Positions 10,603 to 39,391 of a stretch of 64,000 bases of DNA are shown in pieces. Numbering within the stretch: position 1 is the stretch's first letter; each line of letters starts with the position of its first letter. Position numbers and translations under genes: made by a program. Below the pieces are notes generated by a model. That model saw only the letters and a list, made by a program, of their open reading frames with translations, was not told the DNA's origin and ran no database searches. The DNA is taken from assembly GCA_026993075.1 (NCBI GenBank), contig JALWUQ010000005.1, positions 1,022 through 65,021 of the forward strand, in the 5' to 3' direction. Origin of the DNA: Campylobacteraceae bacterium (lineage in GTDB: Bacteria; Campylobacterota; Campylobacteria; Campylobacterales; JALSKU01).

Positions 10603-10679
10603 TGGCGCGGCGGACGAGGTTTGAACTCGCGACCCCCGGCGTGACAGGCCGGTATTCTGACCAGCTGAACTACCGCCGC
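10603..10679 (-). tRNA. tRNA-Asp (GTC)
   Basis: The reverse complement is GCGGCGGTAGTTCAGCTGGTCAGAATACCGGCCTGTCACGCCGGGGGTCGCGAGTTCAAACCTCGTCCGCCGCGCCA. It folds as a cloverleaf with anticodon loop CTGTCAC and an encoded CCA. Confidence 0.95.
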
Positions 10680-10742
10680 AACCTAAATAACAAAGTAACA
10701 ACAAACTACTTAGAAAACCTGTAATCTGTTTTTTTGTTAATA

Positions 10743-10818
10743 TGGTGGTCGCTACAAGACTCGAACTTGTGACATCCACCTTGTAAGGGTGGCGCTCTAC
10801 CAACTGAGCTAAGCGACC
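10743..10818 (-). tRNA. tRNA-Val (TAC)
   Basis: The reverse complement is GGTCGCTTAGCTCAGTTGGTAGAGCGCCACCCTTACAAGGTGGATGTCACAAGTTCGAGTCTTGTAGCGACCACCA, with anticodon loop CTTACAA and an encoded CCA. Confidence 0.95.
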
Positions 10819-10855
10819 AAGTGTTTGTCCAGGACTTTTTGACCATACTAAATGA

Positions 10856-10931
10856 TGGCGACCCCAAGGGGATTTGAACCCCTGTTACCGCCGTGAAAGG
10901 GCGGGGTCCTGGGCCACTAGACGATGGGGTC
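10856..10931 (-). tRNA. tRNA-Glu (TTC)
   Basis: The reverse complement is GACCCCATCGTCTAGTGGCCCAGGACCCCGCCCTTTCACGGCGGTAACAGGGGTTCAAATCCCCTTGGGGTCGCCA, with anticodon loop CTTTCAC. Confidence 0.95.
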
Positions 10932-11010
10932 ATTTAAATTATAAATGCTAAATTATGAGTGTTGAATAAAAAAATAATTTAAAATTCATAAGTCAAAATC
11001 AAACATTAAA

Positions 11011-11086
11011 TGGTGACCCCTGTTGGATTCGAACCAACGGCCCATTCCTTAAAAGGGAATTGCTCTACCAACTGAGCTAAGGAGTC
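11011..11086 (-). tRNA. tRNA-Lys (TTT)
   Basis: The reverse complement is GACTCCTTAGCTCAGTTGGTAGAGCAATTCCCTTTTAAGGAATGGGCCGTTGGTTCGAATCCAACAGGGGTCACCA, with anticodon loop CTTTTAA. Confidence 0.95.
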
Positions 11087-20659: not shown

Positions 20660-21010
20660 ATGGAAAATCTATGTTGTACTAGAATTGAAGTTGATGAAAA
20701 ACTTATTAAAGATGCCATAAACTTTCTTGGCACTGAAGATATAAACTTAAAAAAACAGGCAAAGTTTTTTTTACTTCTTGGCAATGAAATGCGTCTAAAA
20801 ATAGTGAGACTAATTTTGGAATTTGGAAGAATGTGCGTATGTGATTTGGCCGATGTGTTGCGCATGAAACAATCTCCTGTATCACAGCATCTAAGAAAGT
20901 TGAAAGATGGTGGTATTCTTATCCCAAAAAGAGAAGGAATGACTGTTTTTTATATGATAAGTCCATCTGCTATGGATGATATAAAAAGATGTGTAAAGGA
21001 AAAATTATGA
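20660..21010 (+). CDS. ArsR/SmtB-family metalloregulator
   Basis: 116 aa. Winged-helix core RLKIVRLILEFGRMCVCDLADVLRMKQSPVSQHLRKLKDGGIL with the alpha3 CVC metal site, plus an N-terminal CC pair (MENLCC). Confidence 0.85.
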   Translation: MENLCCTRIEVDEKLIKDAINFLGTEDINLKKQAKFFLLLGNEMRLKIVRLILEFGRMCVCDLADVLRMKQSPVSQHLRKLKDGGILIPKREGMTVFYMISPSAMDDIKRCVKEKL

Positions 21011-22647
21011 AAAATATAAAGATAAAAATTTCGGGAATGACATGTGTAGGATGTGCGAATACTATAGAGAGAGCTTTGTCGGTAAAAGGAATAGAGTATG
21101 TAAAAGTTGACTATGAAAACATGTCTGCTTTTATAAGTTTTGATGAAAATATTATAAGCGAGAGTAATATAGCTGACATCATAAACAGTGTAGGGCATTA
21201 CAAAACTGAAAGTGTTGAAGAGATTGTTGATAAGAGCATACAAAATATAAAAAATCATCTTGTCATTATCGGAGGCGGTTCTGCAGCATTTGCCGCCGCT
21301 ATACAGGCAAAAGAGTTTGGTATAAAAACTACTATGATCAATGGCGGGCTTCCTATAGGAGGGACTTGTGTCAATGTAGGGTGTGTACCGTCCAAATATC
21401 TCATAAGGGCTGCCGAAACTTTGCACAAAGCCAACAACAACCCTTTTGAAGGTATTGTATCCAGCGCAGAGGTATTGGATTTTGAAAAAATTATAAAAGA
21501 TAAAGAAAAACTTGTCTTAAACTTACAAAAAGAAAAATATATTGATATTTTAAATCAGATGGAAGAGTTTGAACTCATTGAAGATAGAGCCCAACTGCTC
21601 TCAAAAAAAGAGATAAAAGTCGGTAACAGGGTGATAAATGCTACCCATATACTCATCGCTACAGGTGCAAGTGCAATGATACCGGATATAAAAGGTTTAG
21701 ATAGTGTTGATTATCTAACGAATATTGAAGCATTTGAATTGGATAGTTTGCCTAAAACAATGATAGTTTTGGGTGGCGGATATATTGCACTGGAAATTGC
21801 TCAAATGTTTTCAAGATTTGGCAGTAAAATAACTTTGTTGCAACGCTCTAGTCAAATACTTTCAAAAGAAGAAAAAGACATCAGTGATGAATTGATAAAA
21901 CATTTTGAAAACGAAGGGATAGAGGTTGTTACAGATAATAATATACAAAATATCTATCAAAAAGATGATCAGGTAGAGGTTACAACACAGATAAAAGATA
22001 AAATAAGAAAATATAGTGCAAAAAAGTTAGTCGTTGCAACCGGAAGAGTGCCAAATACTCTTGGTCTCAGGCTTGATAGTGCCGGTGTAAAAATAGAACA
22101 AAACGGATCTGTGTCAGTAAATGAGTTTATGCAAACAAATATTCCAAATATTTACGCAGCCGGAGATGTCATCGGAAAAAATATGTTTGTCTATACGGCT
22201 GCATATGAGGCAAAGCTTGCCGTTATCAATATGTTTTCTCAAAATAAGCAGCCGGCTGATTTTGAGGTTGTACCATGGGTGGTTTTTACTGATCCTCAAG
22301 TTGCAGGTGTTGGAATGGATGAAAAAGAGGCGAAACAAAAAGGTATCGATTATGATGTAGCCGTTTTACCTTTGAGCTATGTTCCAAGATCCATAGCGGC
22401 AAAAGATACACGAGGTTTTATAAAACTTATAAGAGACAAAGAAAATGATATACTTGTAGGTGCTCGCATAGTCTCTCCCGAGGGTTCTGAACTGTTAATG
22501 GAAGTTTCTATGGCTATTAAGTTTGGTATCAAAGTTTCCAAGATAAGAGATATGCTTCATCCGTATTTGACGCTCTCTGAGGGCATCAAACTGGCAACTA
22601 TAACATTTGATAAAAGTGTTAAGTCACTTAGCTGTTGTGCAACATAA
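21007..22647 (+). CDS. merA: Mercuric reductase MerA with N-terminal HMA (NmerA) domain
   Basis: N-terminal GMTCVGC HMA domain, FAD-disulfide active site GGTCVNVGCVPSK, and the C-terminal Cys pair (LSCCAT). I prefer the ATG at 21007 (aagga SD, ATGA overlap with the arsR stop) over 20989. Confidence 0.9.
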   Translation: MKNIKIKISGMTCVGCANTIERALSVKGIEYVKVDYENMSAFISFDENIISESNIADIINSVGHYKTESVEEIVDKSIQNIKNHLVIIGGGSAAFAAAIQAKEFGIKTTMINGGLPIGGTCVNVGCVPSKYLIRAAETLHKANNNPFEGIVSSAEVLDFEKIIKDKEKLVLNLQKEKYIDILNQMEEFELIEDRAQLLSKKEIKVGNRVINATHILIATGASAMIPDIKGLDSVDYLTNIEAFELDSLPKTMIVLGGGYIALEIAQMFSRFGSKITLLQRSSQILSKEEKDISDELIKHFENEGIEVVTDNNIQNIYQKDDQVEVTTQIKDKIRKYSAKKLVVATGRVPNTLGLRLDSAGVKIEQNGSVSVNEFMQTNIPNIYAAGDVIGKNMFVYTAAYEAKLAVINMFSQNKQPADFEVVPWVVFTDPQVAGVGMDEKEAKQKGIDYDVAVLPLSYVPRSIAAKDTRGFIKLIRDKENDILVGARIVSPEGSELLMEVSMAIKFGIKVSKIRDMLHPYLTLSEGIKLATITFDKSVKSLSCCAT

Positions 22648-30710: not shown

Positions 30711-32909
30711 ATGCAAGAGATTATAAATAAACTTGATTTGGGCAATTTTATAACGACATTTACTACCTTTTTATCAAGAAATAAGCCTGTATTTATACAA
30801 GGAGATATTAAATTACATTATAAATACATACAAGAACTTTCAAAATATGAGTTTAAGCCTCCGCCTGAAGTATCCAATCTTGACCAAAATATTATCCATC
30901 TTAAAAAAATGGGTGTATTAAAACTTTATGAAATATATGAATTTATAAAAATTATTAATTATTTTACATATATTAAAAAAATTTTATTACAGGGTGATTT
31001 GGTAACTTGGTTGGAAAATATTAAGATTCCTCAGGATATTTTAGATTTGATAAAATACTTTGATGAAAAAGGAGAGTTAAGAAGTGATATAGATGATGAA
31101 TTTTTAATGATAGAAAATGCAATTATTAAAAATAAAAAAAATTTAAAAGAGTCTTTAAGAAGAATTTTAAGTTCACAAAAACTTGCTCCATATCTTGTCG
31201 ATACTCAAATACATTATGTAAATTCTGAAGAAGCTTTGCTTTTAAGAGGAGGATTTAATCATGTTTTAAGAGGTACCGTTACAGGTAGAAGTTCAGCTGG
31301 ATTTTTTTATATTGTTCCAGAGTCAATTAAAAAACTAAAAGAAAAAGAGGCAGGATATTTAAGTAAAAAAGAAGAAATCAAATATAAATATGAAAAAAAA
31401 ATATCCTTGATTTTAAGTAGTTATATTAAATTTTTAACTTTTCTCAATAAAGAGTTTGACAGATTTGATCATTATCAAGCAAGAGTTTTTTTTGCAAAAC
31501 AAAAAGATTATAATTTTTTATTGCCAAATAGTAAAAAGGAGATATTGATAAAAGATTTTAAACATCCTGCTTTAAAAGAGCCTAAGGCGGTATCAATAGA
31601 ATTTAAGAAAAAATTACTTTTTATTACGGGCGTAAATGCAGGTGGAAAAACTATGCTTTTGAAATCAATATTAAGTGTAGCTTTTTTATCAAAATACTTA
31701 CTTCCTATGAGTATAAATACATATCATTCCAAGATAGGTAGTTTCAAATACATAAAAGCTATTCTTGATGATCCTCAAAATGTAAAAAACGATATCTCCA
31801 CATTTGCCGGTAGGATGACTGAATTTAGTAAACTTTTTAGATTAAATGGAGCATTAATAGGGGTTGATGAGGTGGAGCTTGGAACAGATTCTGATGAAGC
31901 TGCGGCACTGTTTAATGTAATGCTTCAAGAATTAATTAAAAAGGATATGAGAATTATTATAACTACTCATCATAAAAGACTCGCATCCATGATGGCATCT
32001 TTTGATGAAGTTGAGTTATATGCAGCTTTATACGATGAAAAATATAGGATACCTACATTTGAATTTTTAAAAGGCACTATTGGGAAAAGCTATGCTTTTG
32101 AAACAGCTTTAAGATACTCTATACCTGTAAATATAGTTCAAAATGCTAAAAAGTTATATGGAAAGGATCAAGAAAGTTTAAGTGATTTGATTCAGAAAAA
32201 TATTGATTTAGAACTTGATTTAAAGAAAAAAACTTATCAATTAAAAGAAGATTTGGATGAAATTAAAAAAGAGAAACAGAAGATAAAAGATATAAAAGAT
32301 AAGAGTCAAGAAAAATTAGAAAATATAATAAATTCTTATGAATCAAAATATAGAGTCTTGATGAGTGAAATTAAAAAAGTTGCCAGAGAAAATAATACTA
32401 AAGAAATTCATCGGACACTAAATAAAATAACTAAAATCAAAAAAGATATCAAGGTTGAAAAAATACCTTGTAATGACTCTTTTAAATTAGGAGATTTTGT
32501 AAAATTTGGAAATCAAAAAGGAAAGATTGTCTCTTTAAAAAAGAGTGAAGCAACCTTGGAGTGTAGTGGTATGATTCTTAGAGTACCATTATCTAAGTTA
32601 AAACATACTACAATTATTTTAAATAAAGAAAAAATAAAGACAAGTATTAAACATCAAAAGCCAAACTCATCATCCATTAAGATTGACTTACATGGAATGA
32701 GAGCAGAAGAGGCACTGGAAAAACTTGATAAGTTTCTTTCAGATGCTTTGATAACAGGATATGATGAAGTTTTGATAAGCCATGGCATAGGTACTGGCAA
32801 ATTAGCCTATGCAGTTAAAGAATTTTTAAAAATTCATCCAAAAATAAAAAGTTTTGAAGACGCTCCAATAAATCTTGGAGGTTATGGGGCAACTTTGGCA
32901 AGGCTATAA
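30711..32909 (+). CDS. mutS2: Endonuclease MutS2 (MutS ATPase + C-terminal Smr domain)
   Basis: Walker A GVNAGGKT, MutS-type ATPase core, coiled-coil linker, and a C-terminal Smr domain (IDLHGMRAEEALEKLDKFL). Confidence 0.9.
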   Translation: MQEIINKLDLGNFITTFTTFLSRNKPVFIQGDIKLHYKYIQELSKYEFKPPPEVSNLDQNIIHLKKMGVLKLYEIYEFIKIINYFTYIKKILLQGDLVTWLENIKIPQDILDLIKYFDEKGELRSDIDDEFLMIENAIIKNKKNLKESLRRILSSQKLAPYLVDTQIHYVNSEEALLLRGGFNHVLRGTVTGRSSAGFFYIVPESIKKLKEKEAGYLSKKEEIKYKYEKKISLILSSYIKFLTFLNKEFDRFDHYQARVFFAKQKDYNFLLPNSKKEILIKDFKHPALKEPKAVSIEFKKKLLFITGVNAGGKTMLLKSILSVAFLSKYLLPMSINTYHSKIGSFKYIKAILDDPQNVKNDISTFAGRMTEFSKLFRLNGALIGVDEVELGTDSDEAAALFNVMLQELIKKDMRIIITTHHKRLASMMASFDEVELYAALYDEKYRIPTFEFLKGTIGKSYAFETALRYSIPVNIVQNAKKLYGKDQESLSDLIQKNIDLELDLKKKTYQLKEDLDEIKKEKQKIKDIKDKSQEKLENIINSYESKYRVLMSEIKKVARENNTKEIHRTLNKITKIKKDIKVEKIPCNDSFKLGDFVKFGNQKGKIVSLKKSEATLECSGMILRVPLSKLKHTTIILNKEKIKTSIKHQKPNSSSIKIDLHGMRAEEALEKLDKFLSDALITGYDEVLISHGIGTGKLAYAVKEFLKIHPKIKSFEDAPINLGGYGATLARL

Positions 32910-32912
32910 TAA

Positions 32913-33047
32913 ATGAAATATTCATATTTTTCAAAAATACAAATACAAATAAAAACTATGAATGTTTCTCTTGCCCATTGGGGCAAAGCAATGCTAAAGA
33001 GGAATTTTGCTGAAGCTTGCTTTAGTAAAAAGGAGATTATTAGGTGA
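32913..33047 (+). CDS. Candidate 44-aa mini-ORF spanning the cassette (29-aa conserved core from ATG 32958)
   Basis: MKYSYFSKIQIQIKTMNVSLAHWGKAMLKRNFAEACFSKKEIIR. Its TGA overlaps the GTG start of the next gene (GTGA). The core is conserved in frame in copy 2. Confidence 0.35.
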   Translation: MKYSYFSKIQIQIKTMNVSLAHWGKAMLKRNFAEACFSKKEIIR

Positions 33048-33050
33048 AAA
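32913..33050 (+). repeat. Gene-start cassette copy 1 (paralogue of 38495-38627)
   Basis: About 85% identical by hand alignment to the copy upstream of proB. The last 41 nt differ at 1 position and contain aaggag plus the GTG start of the downstream gene. Bracketed by TGAAA at 32914-32918 and 33045-33049. Confidence 0.85.
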
Positions 33051-33535
33051 AAATTATATTAATATTGATTATGTTTGTGAGTTTACTTTTTTCATATAAC
33101 AGCAATGATTTAAATAAATTTAAAAAAAACAGAGATTGCCCAAAATGTGATCTTAGCTATGCTAATTTGAAAGGATGGGATATTACCTGGGCAGATTTAA
33201 AAGATGCAAACTTAAGCCATGCAAATCTAAATGGAGCCAATGCTCACAGGGCAGATTTTAGTGGTGCTGATTTAAGCTATGCAAGTTGCAAAGGAACAAA
33301 TTTAAAGGGAGTAAAATTTATAGGCGCAAAACTTGTAAAAGTTAATTTTACAAATGCAAGAATTTGGAAAAGCAATTTCACCAATGCTAAGATTGTAAAA
33401 TGTAATTTTAAAGGTGCGGCTCTTGGCTCAAGTATTTTTAAGGGAAACAATTTAAGTAATTCAAAATTTGACAGCAATACTATTTTATATAAAACGGTAT
33501 TTGAGCATGTTAAGGGAATACCAAAAAGGAAATAA
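33044..33535 (+). CDS. Secreted pentapeptide-repeat protein
   Basis: Signal peptide followed by tandem A(D/N)LxX pentapeptides (ANLKGWDITWADLKDANLSHANLNGANAHRADFSGADLSYA...). Confidence 0.8.
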   Translation: MKKIILILIMFVSLLFSYNSNDLNKFKKNRDCPKCDLSYANLKGWDITWADLKDANLSHANLNGANAHRADFSGADLSYASCKGTNLKGVKFIGAKLVKVNFTNARIWKSNFTNAKIVKCNFKGAALGSSIFKGNNLSNSKFDSNTILYKTVFEHVKGIPKRK

Positions 33536-38449: not shown

Positions 38450-38494
38450 AAAGTTTTTATATGCTGATAAAACTTTTACAAAAGGAGAGTGCAG

Positions 38495-38627
38495 GTGAAG
38501 CACTCATATTTCAAAAACACAAATAACAATAAAAATCATGAGAGTTTCTCTTGCTAGAGGCAAAGTTTTAGTGAGAGGAATTTTTACTGAAGCTTGCTTT
38601 AGTGAAAAGGAGATTATTAGGTGAAAA
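38495..38627 (+). repeat. Gene-start cassette copy 2 (paralogue of 32913-33050)
   Basis: See copy 1. Bracketed by AGGTGAA at 38493-38499 and 38619-38625. It supplies aaggag plus the GTG start of proB. Confidence 0.85.
38538..38624 (+). CDS. Candidate 28-aa mini-ORF (paralogue of the copy-1 core), stop overlapping the proB GTG
   Basis: MRVSLARGKVLVRGIFTEACFSEKEIIR compares with MNVSLAHWGKAMLKRNFAEACFSKKEIIR in copy 1. No SD precedes its ATG. A separate 20-codon ORF (38495-38557, VKHSYFKNTNNNKNHESFSC) starts at the SD-preceded GTG. Confidence 0.3.
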   Translation: MRVSLARGKVLVRGIFTEACFSEKEIIR

Positions 38628-39391
38628 GAGTTGTTGTAAAAGTCGGCAGTCATGTTTTAAGTGAACAAAATAGAATCGAAAAGACAAGAATGATGAATTT
38701 AGTTGAATTTGTATCTTTGCTGCATGATCGTTACGAAGTTATACTTGTAAGCTCAGGTGCGGTAGCAGCCGGGTATTCAAAGCTGAAACTTGATAAAAAT
38801 TTCATTTCAAACAGACAGGCGATAGCTTCAGTAGGTCAACCTTATTTGATGCGGGAATATCAGAAAAAATTTGAAAAATTTGAAAAACTTACAGCCCAGT
38901 TTCTTTTAACTGCTAGTGATCTTGATTCAAGAAAGAGAACAAAATTTGCTAAAAATGCCATAGAAGTTTGTTTAAAAAATAAAGTTATACCTATCATCAA
39001 TGAAAATGATACAACAGCAACGGATGAATTGGTTTTTGGAGATAATGACCAACTTTCAGCTCATGTTGCATATTACTTTAATGCTGATATACTTGTGATA
39101 TTGTCTGATATAGACGGATATTATGATAAAGATCCAAGAAAAAACAGTGAAGCAAAAATAAAAAAAATAGTCCATCAAATAAGTGAGGATGAATCCAAAA
39201 TCCCAAATGAACCGACTGATTTCTTTGCAACAGGAGGCATAGCTACAAAGCTTAAATCTGCAGATTTTCTTTTAAAAAGAGGCAAATCCATGTTTATGTG
39301 TGATGGTTTTAACTTAAATGATGCAAAAAGTTTTTTGCTGAATGAAGAACACCAGGGGGGAACACTGTTTTGTCCAAAGATGGTAGATTAA
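38621..39391 (+). CDS. proB: Glutamate 5-kinase
   Basis: MKRVVVKVGSHVL..., VSSGAVAAG, INENDTTATDEL, GDNDQLSA. Short form lacking PUA. Confidence 0.92.
   Translation: MKRVVVKVGSHVLSEQNRIEKTRMMNLVEFVSLLHDRYEVILVSSGAVAAGYSKLKLDKNFISNRQAIASVGQPYLMREYQKKFEKFEKLTAQFLLTASDLDSRKRTKFAKNAIEVCLKNKVIPIINENDTTATDELVFGDNDQLSAHVAYYFNADILVILSDIDGYYDKDPRKNSEAKIKKIVHQISEDESKIPNEPTDFFATGGIATKLKSADFLLKRGKSMFMCDGFNLNDAKSFLLNEEHQGGTLFCPKMVD

Follow-up and report, generated by a model that had tools for sequence, protein, structure and literature searches.

A stretch of 64,000 nucleotides from a Campylobacteraceae bacterium (contig JALWUQ010000005.1; the whole stretch is referred to as the window) was analysed in follow-up of a prediction made from its sequence, namely that a repeat of about 130 nt lands on the start of a gene and supplies it anew with translation signals. 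The window holds two copies of this repeat, here called the element, one in front of a gene for a secreted pentapeptide-repeat protein and one in front of proB. Both copies are likely to belong to a family of non-autonomous insertions in a Campylobacterales clade that enter at start codons and would be rendered harmless by termination-reinitiation together with a Shine-Dalgarno (SD) sequence of their own. All copies found are located at gene starts, where they supply an SD and a start codon. Hairpins are conserved within the family, an open reading frame (ORF) leads from the old start towards the new one, and the substitutions show no coding pattern.

The element supplies the start codons of two unrelated genes

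Alignment of the two copies with MAFFT (window positions 32913-33046 and 38495-38623) gave a mean column identity of 84% with small indels of 2, 3 and 1 nt, in line with the roughly 85% identity and three small indels of the hand alignment behind the original prediction. The final ~40 nt of the two copies differ at one base. A 37-nt core, CTGAAGCTTGCTTTAGTRAAAAGGAGATTATTAGGTG, has two occurrences and no more in the whole window (33010-33046 and 38587-38623), where 100 shuffles predict 0.00, and the pair formed by the two copies is the top direct-repeat family of the window. AAAAGGAG-N8-GTG forms the end of both copies and serves the respective downstream gene as its working start, so that the near-identical 3' end with the SD and GTG of two unrelated genes was recovered as proposed. 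This was also the case for the second SD and start motif at each 5' edge, and all that the prediction had stated on the sequence itself was confirmed. The features of the two loci are as follows.

32900..32915 (+): host-derived initiation signals of the pentapeptide-repeat gene, AAGG-N9-ATG, placed 3 nt behind the stop of mutS2; its ATG (32913-32915) has become the start of the element ORF
32916..33046 (+): element copy 1, ~131 nt, nhmmer E=1.2e-31 to the family model; edges ambiguous within the repeated TGAAA
33030..33046 (+): element-borne SD AAGGAG (33030-33035), 8-nt spacer and the GTG (33044-33046) that serves the pentapeptide-repeat gene as its working start
33044..33535 (+): host gene 1, secreted pentapeptide-repeat protein of 163 aa with Pentapeptide domains, opening at GTG 33044
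38482..38497 (+): host-derived initiation signals of proB, AAGGAG-N7-GTG, with the left start GTG at 38495-38497
38498..38623 (+): element copy 2, ~126 nt, nhmmer E=6.1e-39; SD at 38607-38612 and right start GTG at 38621-38623
38621..39391 (+): host gene 2, proB (glutamate 5-kinase), 256 aa, AA_kinase domain, homologues named glutamate 5-kinase, opening at GTG 38621

Both window copies are single, without a tandem partner. An inverted-repeat analysis of the window found no terminal inverted repeats (TIRs) joining the two ends of the element, and the earlier view that it is not a classical MITE (miniature inverted-repeat transposable element) therefore holds. No intrinsic terminator was found on the + strand within either window copy, and a scan with the sigma-70 consensus, which does not model Campylobacterota promoters, returned 0 + strand promoter sites in either of them.

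Related genomes hold the same junctions without the element

Syntenic contigs were fetched through ProB and MutS2 homologues (contigs are given L numbers and peptides P numbers below). Both copies are present in the close relatives L010 and L022, at 97-98% protein identity. On the mutS2 side, the element is absent from relatives with ~77% identical MutS2, in which mutS2 is directly followed by ATGAAAAAAATT. In L023 (77% MutS2 identity) the junction reads ...ttatag gag ATGAAAAAAATTATA and in L024 it reads caa ATGAAAAAAGTT. The two relatives share ATGAAAAAA(A/G)TT, with an ATG at the position of the left start of copy 1 and AAAAAA(A/G)TT directly after it. Conceptual removal of the element had been predicted to regenerate a compact start, and these mutS2 junctions read accordingly. 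On the proB side, copy 2 is absent from L011-L017, which represent four relative lineages and in which obg overlaps or abuts proB. Empty sites, which the original prediction had proposed to look for downstream of mutS2 and between obg and proB, were thus found at both places. The element was inserted into pre-existing junctions, and filled and empty states are both documented at the same locus.

The obg-proB junction of L023 was at first considered as a further empty site. It has an 18-nt spacer, AAAAGGAGATGCTTAG-GTG, that is like both the left-flank SD of the window and the element 3' end, and its proB ribosome-binding site (RBS; L023:18143-18163, AAAAGGAGATGCTTAGGTGAAAAGA) matches the element 3' end at 23/25 positions. 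The spacer could be an ancestral RBS, a scar of recombination between two SDs, or the source of the element 3' end. Since it may be the scar of a deletion between the SD of the host and that of the element, the junction was dropped as a clean empty site, and the empty-site argument at obg-proB consequently rests on L011-L017.

Copies occur at 17 host gene starts

The family census was carried out on partial genomes, that is, on Campylobacterales metagenome-assembled genomes (MAGs) and metagenome contigs. The first probe, a 21-base pattern from the 3' hairpin region with the start codon excluded, gave eight true loci in four Campylobacterales MAGs and one chance match, in the GC-rich Planctomycete MAG L009, that was rejected as a member. 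A looser DNA pattern gave four metagenome contigs and had no match among viral contigs, while an nhmmer profile made from full-length copies added one further copy, L007b. A profile of the peptide encoded by the reading frame, a search that favours intact frames, returned ~45 distinct called ORFs of 30-68 aa, and four of their contigs were fetched. No matches indicating a phage, plasmid or viral origin of the element were obtained.

The family thus amounts to 17 distinct host gene starts, and at all 17 the element lies in sense orientation directly 5' of the start codon. Full-length copies measure 122-140 nt. In every copy whose contig extends to the host gene, AAAAGGAG-N8-RTG is the start of an ORF that is long or recognised by Pfam; units inside tandem arrays and copies cut off by a contig end were left out of this score. 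The host genes have no common function and include the pentapeptide-repeat gene, proB, glgA, a YgjP-like peptidase gene, a cheW-like gene, serA, gmd and purH, as well as a histidine kinase gene after a response regulator, a TolC-like gene after marR, hobA after lysC, nosY in a nos cluster, a gene for a DUF202 protein and a gene after cas1.

The left start could be placed for full-length copies at 14 sites. Relative to the upstream stop its distance is -4, -1, +1 or +3 nt for 8 of these sites and +10 to +45 nt for 5, and no upstream ORF was detected at the remaining site (L003). This is the usual spacing of a gene start inside an operon. Together with the empty sites, the 17 sense-oriented gene-start sites bear out the notion of a small module that lands on a gene start and re-supplies its SD and start codon. 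In the census that had been proposed alongside it, all 17 sites abut a start codon; RTGAA flanks on both sides of the element, which were to be scored as well, are not general.

The region L025:250-3180 is a CRISPR-Cas adaptation module that holds one copy, with cas1 on one side of it and an ORF of 79 aa on the other; cas2-like genes lie on both sides and a Cas_APE2256 gene upstream. In the region L030:846-11434 a diverged copy is found inside a nitrous-oxide reductase (nos) cluster, directly before a nosY-like ABC-2 membrane gene.

Tandem copies and turnover between loci

Some copies are arranged in tandem. L021:1-260 (-) carries a dimer of full-length copies that differ at one base, in which the second copy begins directly after the GTG of the first and the upstream stop overlaps the first ATG (TAATG); the end of the contig falls inside the second copy. 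On three Sulfurospirillum-type contigs, L001:3869-4114 (-), L006:1725-1822 and L019:1009-1194 (-), tandem arrays of an 87-nt unit lie between lysC and hobA. The unit consists of the 3' half of the element, including the second and third of its hairpins (P2 and P3, described below) and the SD, plus ~20 extra nt, and a start codon follows only after the last unit. The array breaks assemblies, with contigs ending inside it and a 100-N run in L001 that was rejected as masking and is a scaffold gap inside the array.

The same junction between marR and a tolC-like gene is occupied in two related genomes, at L008:3084-3218 (-) and L027:10001-10134 (+). The flanks are 92-94% identical, while the elements are just 85% identical and differ in their middle segments, type A (GCAATACTAAAG) versus type B (GCTTTAGCGAG). 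With the L021 copy, which stands at another gene, the L008 copy shares 96% identity. That the L008 element is closer to the L021 copy than to its orthologue in L027 points to re-insertion or gene conversion between copies, and some turnover is evident. Copies within one genome are about 75-90% identical.

The presence of only two copies within 64 kb would also be expected of an ordinary leader that is inherited vertically and was duplicated once in this genome, being neither an insertion nor a family. The original prediction had named such a leader as the case that would overturn it. This explanation is almost certainly wrong, since the orthologous sites of relatives are empty, 17 host sites are occupied in several lineages, and the L008 copy resembles the L021 copy at a different gene more closely than the orthologous copy in L027.

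Three covarying hairpins precede the new start codon

Three hairpins were proposed by eye and tested afterwards on an alignment of fourteen copies (alignment A3). Paired cells amounted to 95.2%, compared with 42-54% when the partners were slid, and 8 pairs have changes on both sides; 0/500 shuffles reached the observed values. RNAalifold independently gave the same three helices and left the SD unpaired in the consensus. In the window they are positioned as follows.

32915-32926 / 32957-32968 (+): P1 of copy 1, from folding, 11-12 bp with an A-rich loop, starting at the G of the left start codon
32971..32986 (+): P2 of copy 1, short and GC-containing, TTGCCC / GGGCAA, with 98.7% of cells paired
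33005..33030 (+): P3 of copy 1, directly 5' of the SD, TTTTGCTGAAG / CTTTAGTAAAA, from folding and family pairing
38497-38508 / 38537-38548 (+): P1 of copy 2
38551-38555 / 38559-38563 (+): P2 of copy 2
38582-38592 / 38597-38607 (+): P3 of copy 2

In the family, 4/12 pairs of P1 have changed on both sides. P3 is preserved with three unrelated stems, namely ACTGAAGC / GCTTTAGT, CAAGGAGC / GCTTCTTG in L007b and GATTGGAA / TTCCAATC in L029, and a conserved G-U pair in it fits the sense strand. Between P2 and P3 (window 32987-33009 and 38564-38586; A3 columns 83-106) lies a near-invariant GAGAGGAA, the flanks of which are able to pair alternatively with the arms of P3, as the first and third segments (seg1 and seg3) are equal in type B and seg1' is near seg2 in type A. 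A search of the whole window against Rfam at gathering score, and of copy 1 at E up to 10, returned only four tRNAs and noise.

These hairpins raise the possibility that the element is a portable cis-regulatory RNA leader, acting through CsrA-type GGA binding, thermosensing or translation-sensing, that was recruited before many genes, the geometry of insertion being secondary. A GGA in a hairpin loop and a second GGA in the SD form the classic layout of leaders bound by CsrA, and the conserved GAGAGGAA has the alternative arms on either side. The covariation of three hairpins, with P3 kept in spite of three different stems, is what such a leader would be expected to show, and so is the ability of the segments GCTTTAGT / ACTGAAGC / GCTTTAGT to pair in two alternative ways. 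In addition, the minimum-energy fold of copy 2 pairs TCTCTT with the SD, and the Sulfurospirillum-type loci carry tandem arrays of the half that contains P2, P3 and the SD. Against this stand the lack of a common function among the host genes and of an Rfam match, the unpaired SD in the consensus fold and, for a riboswitch or other known cis-regulatory family, the empty orthologous sites in relatives. Copy 1 of the close relative L022 (12200-12288) has moreover lost 48 nt between two AATG repeats, corresponding to the 5' arm and loop of P1, with the host gene kept intact; other deletion derivatives, between two GCTTTAGT repeats, are seen in peptides P0256 and P0281. A regulatory leader also leaves unexplained why the copies without exception begin precisely where the host has a start codon or an overlap of stop and start. 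As the account of the family it is thus quite unlikely. It is, however, compatible with insertion at start codons and not exclusive of it.

A reading frame connects the old start with the new

The frames that open at the left start of the two window copies are as follows.

32913..33047 (+): element-spanning ORF of copy 1, 44 codons; its TGA (33045-33047) overlaps the GTG of the host gene (GTGA)
38495..38557 (+): broken ORF of copy 2, 20 codons followed by TAG (38555-38557); a 2-nt deletion shifted the frame

The peptide of copy 1 is identical to that of a called gene on a JGI contig (P0243). ORF ends were scored in 17 rows, comprising the copies in which the left start could be scored; where one site is filled in several genomes, the orthologous copies count among them. 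The ORF ends at most 3 nt from the host start in 10/17 rows, 8 of them with RTGA overlaps, and 33 nt upstream, at a TGA inside ACTGAAGC, in 5/17. In one row, window copy 2, it ends 66 nt upstream, and in another, L003, it reads on into the host gene without an overlapping stop. Substitutions fall on codon positions 1, 2 and 3 in the numbers 8/7/7, without position bias. Selection on the coding of a peptide was rejected on these counts and on the three P3 variants, and no Pfam family matches the element peptide. Judged from the aligned copies, what is conserved is apparently the open frame from the old to the new start and not its sequence.

A real small-protein gene, encoding a functional product of 43-46 aa with the motif GKALVRGIFTEACFSKKEI and spreading between operons, would nevertheless predict several of these features. 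About 45 distinct intact ORFs have been called in public assemblies, start and stop overlap the flanking genes as in a normal operon gene, and an insertion variant of 33 nt (P0251, P0252) is in frame. Such a gene is very unlikely. Beyond the even distribution of substitutions over codon positions, amino-acid changes in the N-terminal half track base-pairing in P1, and the three P3 variants give rise to unrelated C-terminal peptides while the hairpin is kept. The middle segments of types A and B likewise encode different peptides (AMLKRNF versus ALVRGIF). The frame is broken, truncated or without an overlapping stop in about half of the copies ascertained through DNA, the peptide search is biased towards intact frames, and Pfam has no match.

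An extra ~33-38 nt between seg1 and seg2 defines a subfamily made up of L005:598-764 (-) and the peptides P0251, P0252, P0260 and P0279. The insert encodes ...CS(I/V)SGIPQRSEDNC... in frame, and the L005 copy is without P1.

Taken together with the empty sites, start-codon insertion would work as follows. Each copy stands in sense orientation just behind the start codon of its host gene, in most cases where two genes of an operon meet closely. To its left remain the SD and start codon of the host, or the overlap of stop and start with the upstream gene, and these now open a frame of ~43 codons that extends across the whole element. Its 3' end consists of a strong SD (AAAAGGAG) that is exposed, a spacer of 8 nt and a GTG belonging to the element, after which comes the second codon of the host. 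In intact copies such as copy 1 of the window, ribosomes initiating at the old start would translate across the element, terminate at the TGA overlapping the new start (RTGA, a -4 overlap) and re-initiate with the help of the exposed SD, carrying expression of the host gene past the insert. In copies with a broken frame, such as copy 2 at proB, direct initiation at the SD and GTG of the element would alone be sufficient. By analogy with the established coupling at overlapping stop and start codons (PMC6728339, PMC12548453), we infer co-transcription with the host gene, translation of the ORF and termination-reinitiation. The hairpins and the element-spanning ORF, on both of which the working of the element probably hinges, were missed in the original prediction.

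Element boundaries and mobility

The left flank of the element is always RTG and usually RTGAA, and the boundary can be placed only to within RTGAA. The left-edge codon is ATG in all copies except the proB copy, where it is GTG. Since ATG prevails on the left and GTG on the right, the right-hand GTG is best read as borne by the element and the left start as belonging to the host. Ownership of the left start by the host is also indicated by the GTG start of proB in L023, as GTG is the left codon only in the proB copy of the window. Short direct repeats flank both window copies as originally reported, TGAAA at 32914-32918 and 33045-33049 for copy 1 and AGGTGAA at 38493-38499 and 38619-38625 for copy 2. 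They did not extend to the family as a target-site duplication. This reading was rejected, as the two sides have 5-7 nt in common in the window copies but no more than TG in L003 and L007a.

No transposase or recombinase gene that could mobilise the element was found among the 30 window ORFs scanned in Pfam; the ORFs beyond these are housekeeping genes by synteny with L022. In a comparison with IS200/IS605-derived or REP/RAYT-type elements, which insert 3' of a fixed tetra- or pentanucleotide and depend on a Y1 transposase, the hairpins and the lack of TIRs and target-site duplication fit; no transposase was found among the 30 window ORFs scanned.

Several observations weigh against insertion at start codons as the whole explanation. 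As the genomes searched were partial, copies away from gene starts may exist genome-wide. The ORF is broken or ends early in 6/17 rows and has no overlapping stop in L003, and a copy can therefore persist without coupling. The strong conservation of the hairpins and the GGA motifs suggests that the RNA may in addition have a regulatory role, which the insertion model does not explain. The resemblance of the proB RBS of L023, AAAAGGAGATGCTTAGGTG, to the element 3' end may mean that this junction is a deletion scar rather than a site that was never occupied. Finally, a transposase in cis and a consistent target duplication are both lacking, and recent identical copies at different loci were not found among the family copies compared. 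In view of the missing mobilising enzyme, target duplication and recent identical copies, active transposition is something that we infer rather than observe.

A further and rather unlikely proposal is that of an actively mobile element, evolved independently of MIRUs (the mycobacterial repeats discussed below), that homes to start codons by recognition of translation-initiation regions in an as yet undescribed manner, for example with a trans-acting recombinase guided by the P1 and P3 hairpins, and that in addition brings its host genes under shared post-transcriptional control through its conserved RNA structure with GGA-bearing loops and alternative pairings. If true, this would define a general class of intercistronic parasites or regulators that preserve translational coupling.

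Other features of the window

A cluster of four tRNA genes lies at 10606-11086 on the - strand, and the C-terminal part of a type I restriction enzyme R subunit at the window edge (143-1876, + strand). An arsR-type regulator gene and a gene for a MerA-like pyridine-nucleotide disulfide oxidoreductase with an HMA domain occupy 20660-22644. The matching region of L022 has other content, an HTH_5 gene and a CopZ-type zinc-finger gene.

Relation to known repeat families

The original prediction knew of no described element family that behaves in this way. Although its mechanism was largely right, this claim of novelty was too strong, as mycobacterial interspersed repetitive units (MIRUs) are described as doing so and Neisseria REP2 repeats likewise bring an RBS and an ATG. 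MIRUs (Supply et al. 1997, via PMC12548453 and PMC3184786) are described as inserting at start codons and as carrying an ORF coupled through a -4 overlap. Like the present family they are short dispersed repeats at the intercistronic junctions of operons, co-oriented with the flanking genes, with filled and empty sites between relatives. Tandem copies occur among MIRUs, and here in the L021 dimer and the 87-nt arrays of L001 and L019, with both window copies single. An internal ORF coupled to the host gene is a further likeness; here it comes within 3 nt of the host start in the 10/17 rows noted above, copy 1 being one of these and copy 2 not. Tandem arrays are the rule for MIRUs and the exception here, and the 40-100 bp given for MIRUs of GC-rich mycobacteria compares with ~130 nt in AT-rich Campylobacterales. 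The present family differs furthermore in having three covarying hairpins and a strong consensus SD with its own GTG. As the host Campylobacterales have 32-40% GC, sequence homology to MIRUs is not expected, and the family is classed by description as an analogue and not as a member. MIRUs are the only family in the literature surveyed that is described both as inserting at start codons and as being harmless by means of a coupled ORF.

In architecture the closest resemblance is to Neisseria REP2, which is 120-150 bp long, lacks TIRs, has two internal stem-loops and equips downstream genes with a promoter, an RBS and an ATG (PMC3184786). The present family shares with REP2 (CREN) and the related Borrelia plasmid IR sequences the 120-150 bp size, the lack of TIRs and the stem-loops, as well as an RBS and start codon for unrelated downstream genes and a translatable frame (PMC3184786). 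REP2 is described with a promoter and with co-regulation of contact-induced genes (PMC3184786); the sigma-70 scan of the two window copies gave no promoter. Many copies of the present family lie inside operons with stop-start overlaps on both sides, unlike REP2, and they insert at start codons, which the literature surveyed does not describe for REP2.

MITE-like repeats such as Correia/NEMIS, ERIC, YPAL and Rickettsia RPE (PMC2229807) are similarly non-autonomous, measure ~100-170 bp and form stable RNA hairpins. Their open frames are likewise fused to or co-translated with those of their hosts, and they are tolerated since host expression survives (PMC2229807). They have TIRs, often TA duplications, and occupy intergenic or in-frame intragenic sites (PMC2229807), whereas the present family has no TIRs and no consistent duplication, is confined to start codons, and has hairpins that are internal and local. 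A short upstream ORF with a stop overlapping the main start (ATGA or GTGA) is also found in bicistronic 'ribosome delivery' leaders (PMC6728339, PMC12548453). Natural and engineered leaders of this kind hand on ribosomes and neutralise mRNA structure (PMC6728339, PMC12548453), but they are fixed features of single loci or synthetic designs, whereas the present family is a dispersed and repeated insertion. It may be regarded as a natural cassette of the 'bicistronic design' type, with a structured leader, an exposed strong SD and an overlapping stop and start. A warning for annotation follows in that element ORFs of 37-54 aa are called as hypothetical proteins and that the starts of host genes can be mis-assigned.

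The family thus combines the behaviour of MIRUs with the architecture of REP2 and has a sequence and hairpins of its own, being an analogue of both and a member of neither. Finding the same geometry in an unrelated phylum shows that evolution can repeat this strategy and that it is no peculiarity of mycobacteria, and offers a second system in which to seek the mobilising enzyme, the mobilisation of MIRUs having been unexplained since 1997. It is a second, independent and well-documented case of the rarely discussed start-codon insertion strategy, unrelated to MIRUs.

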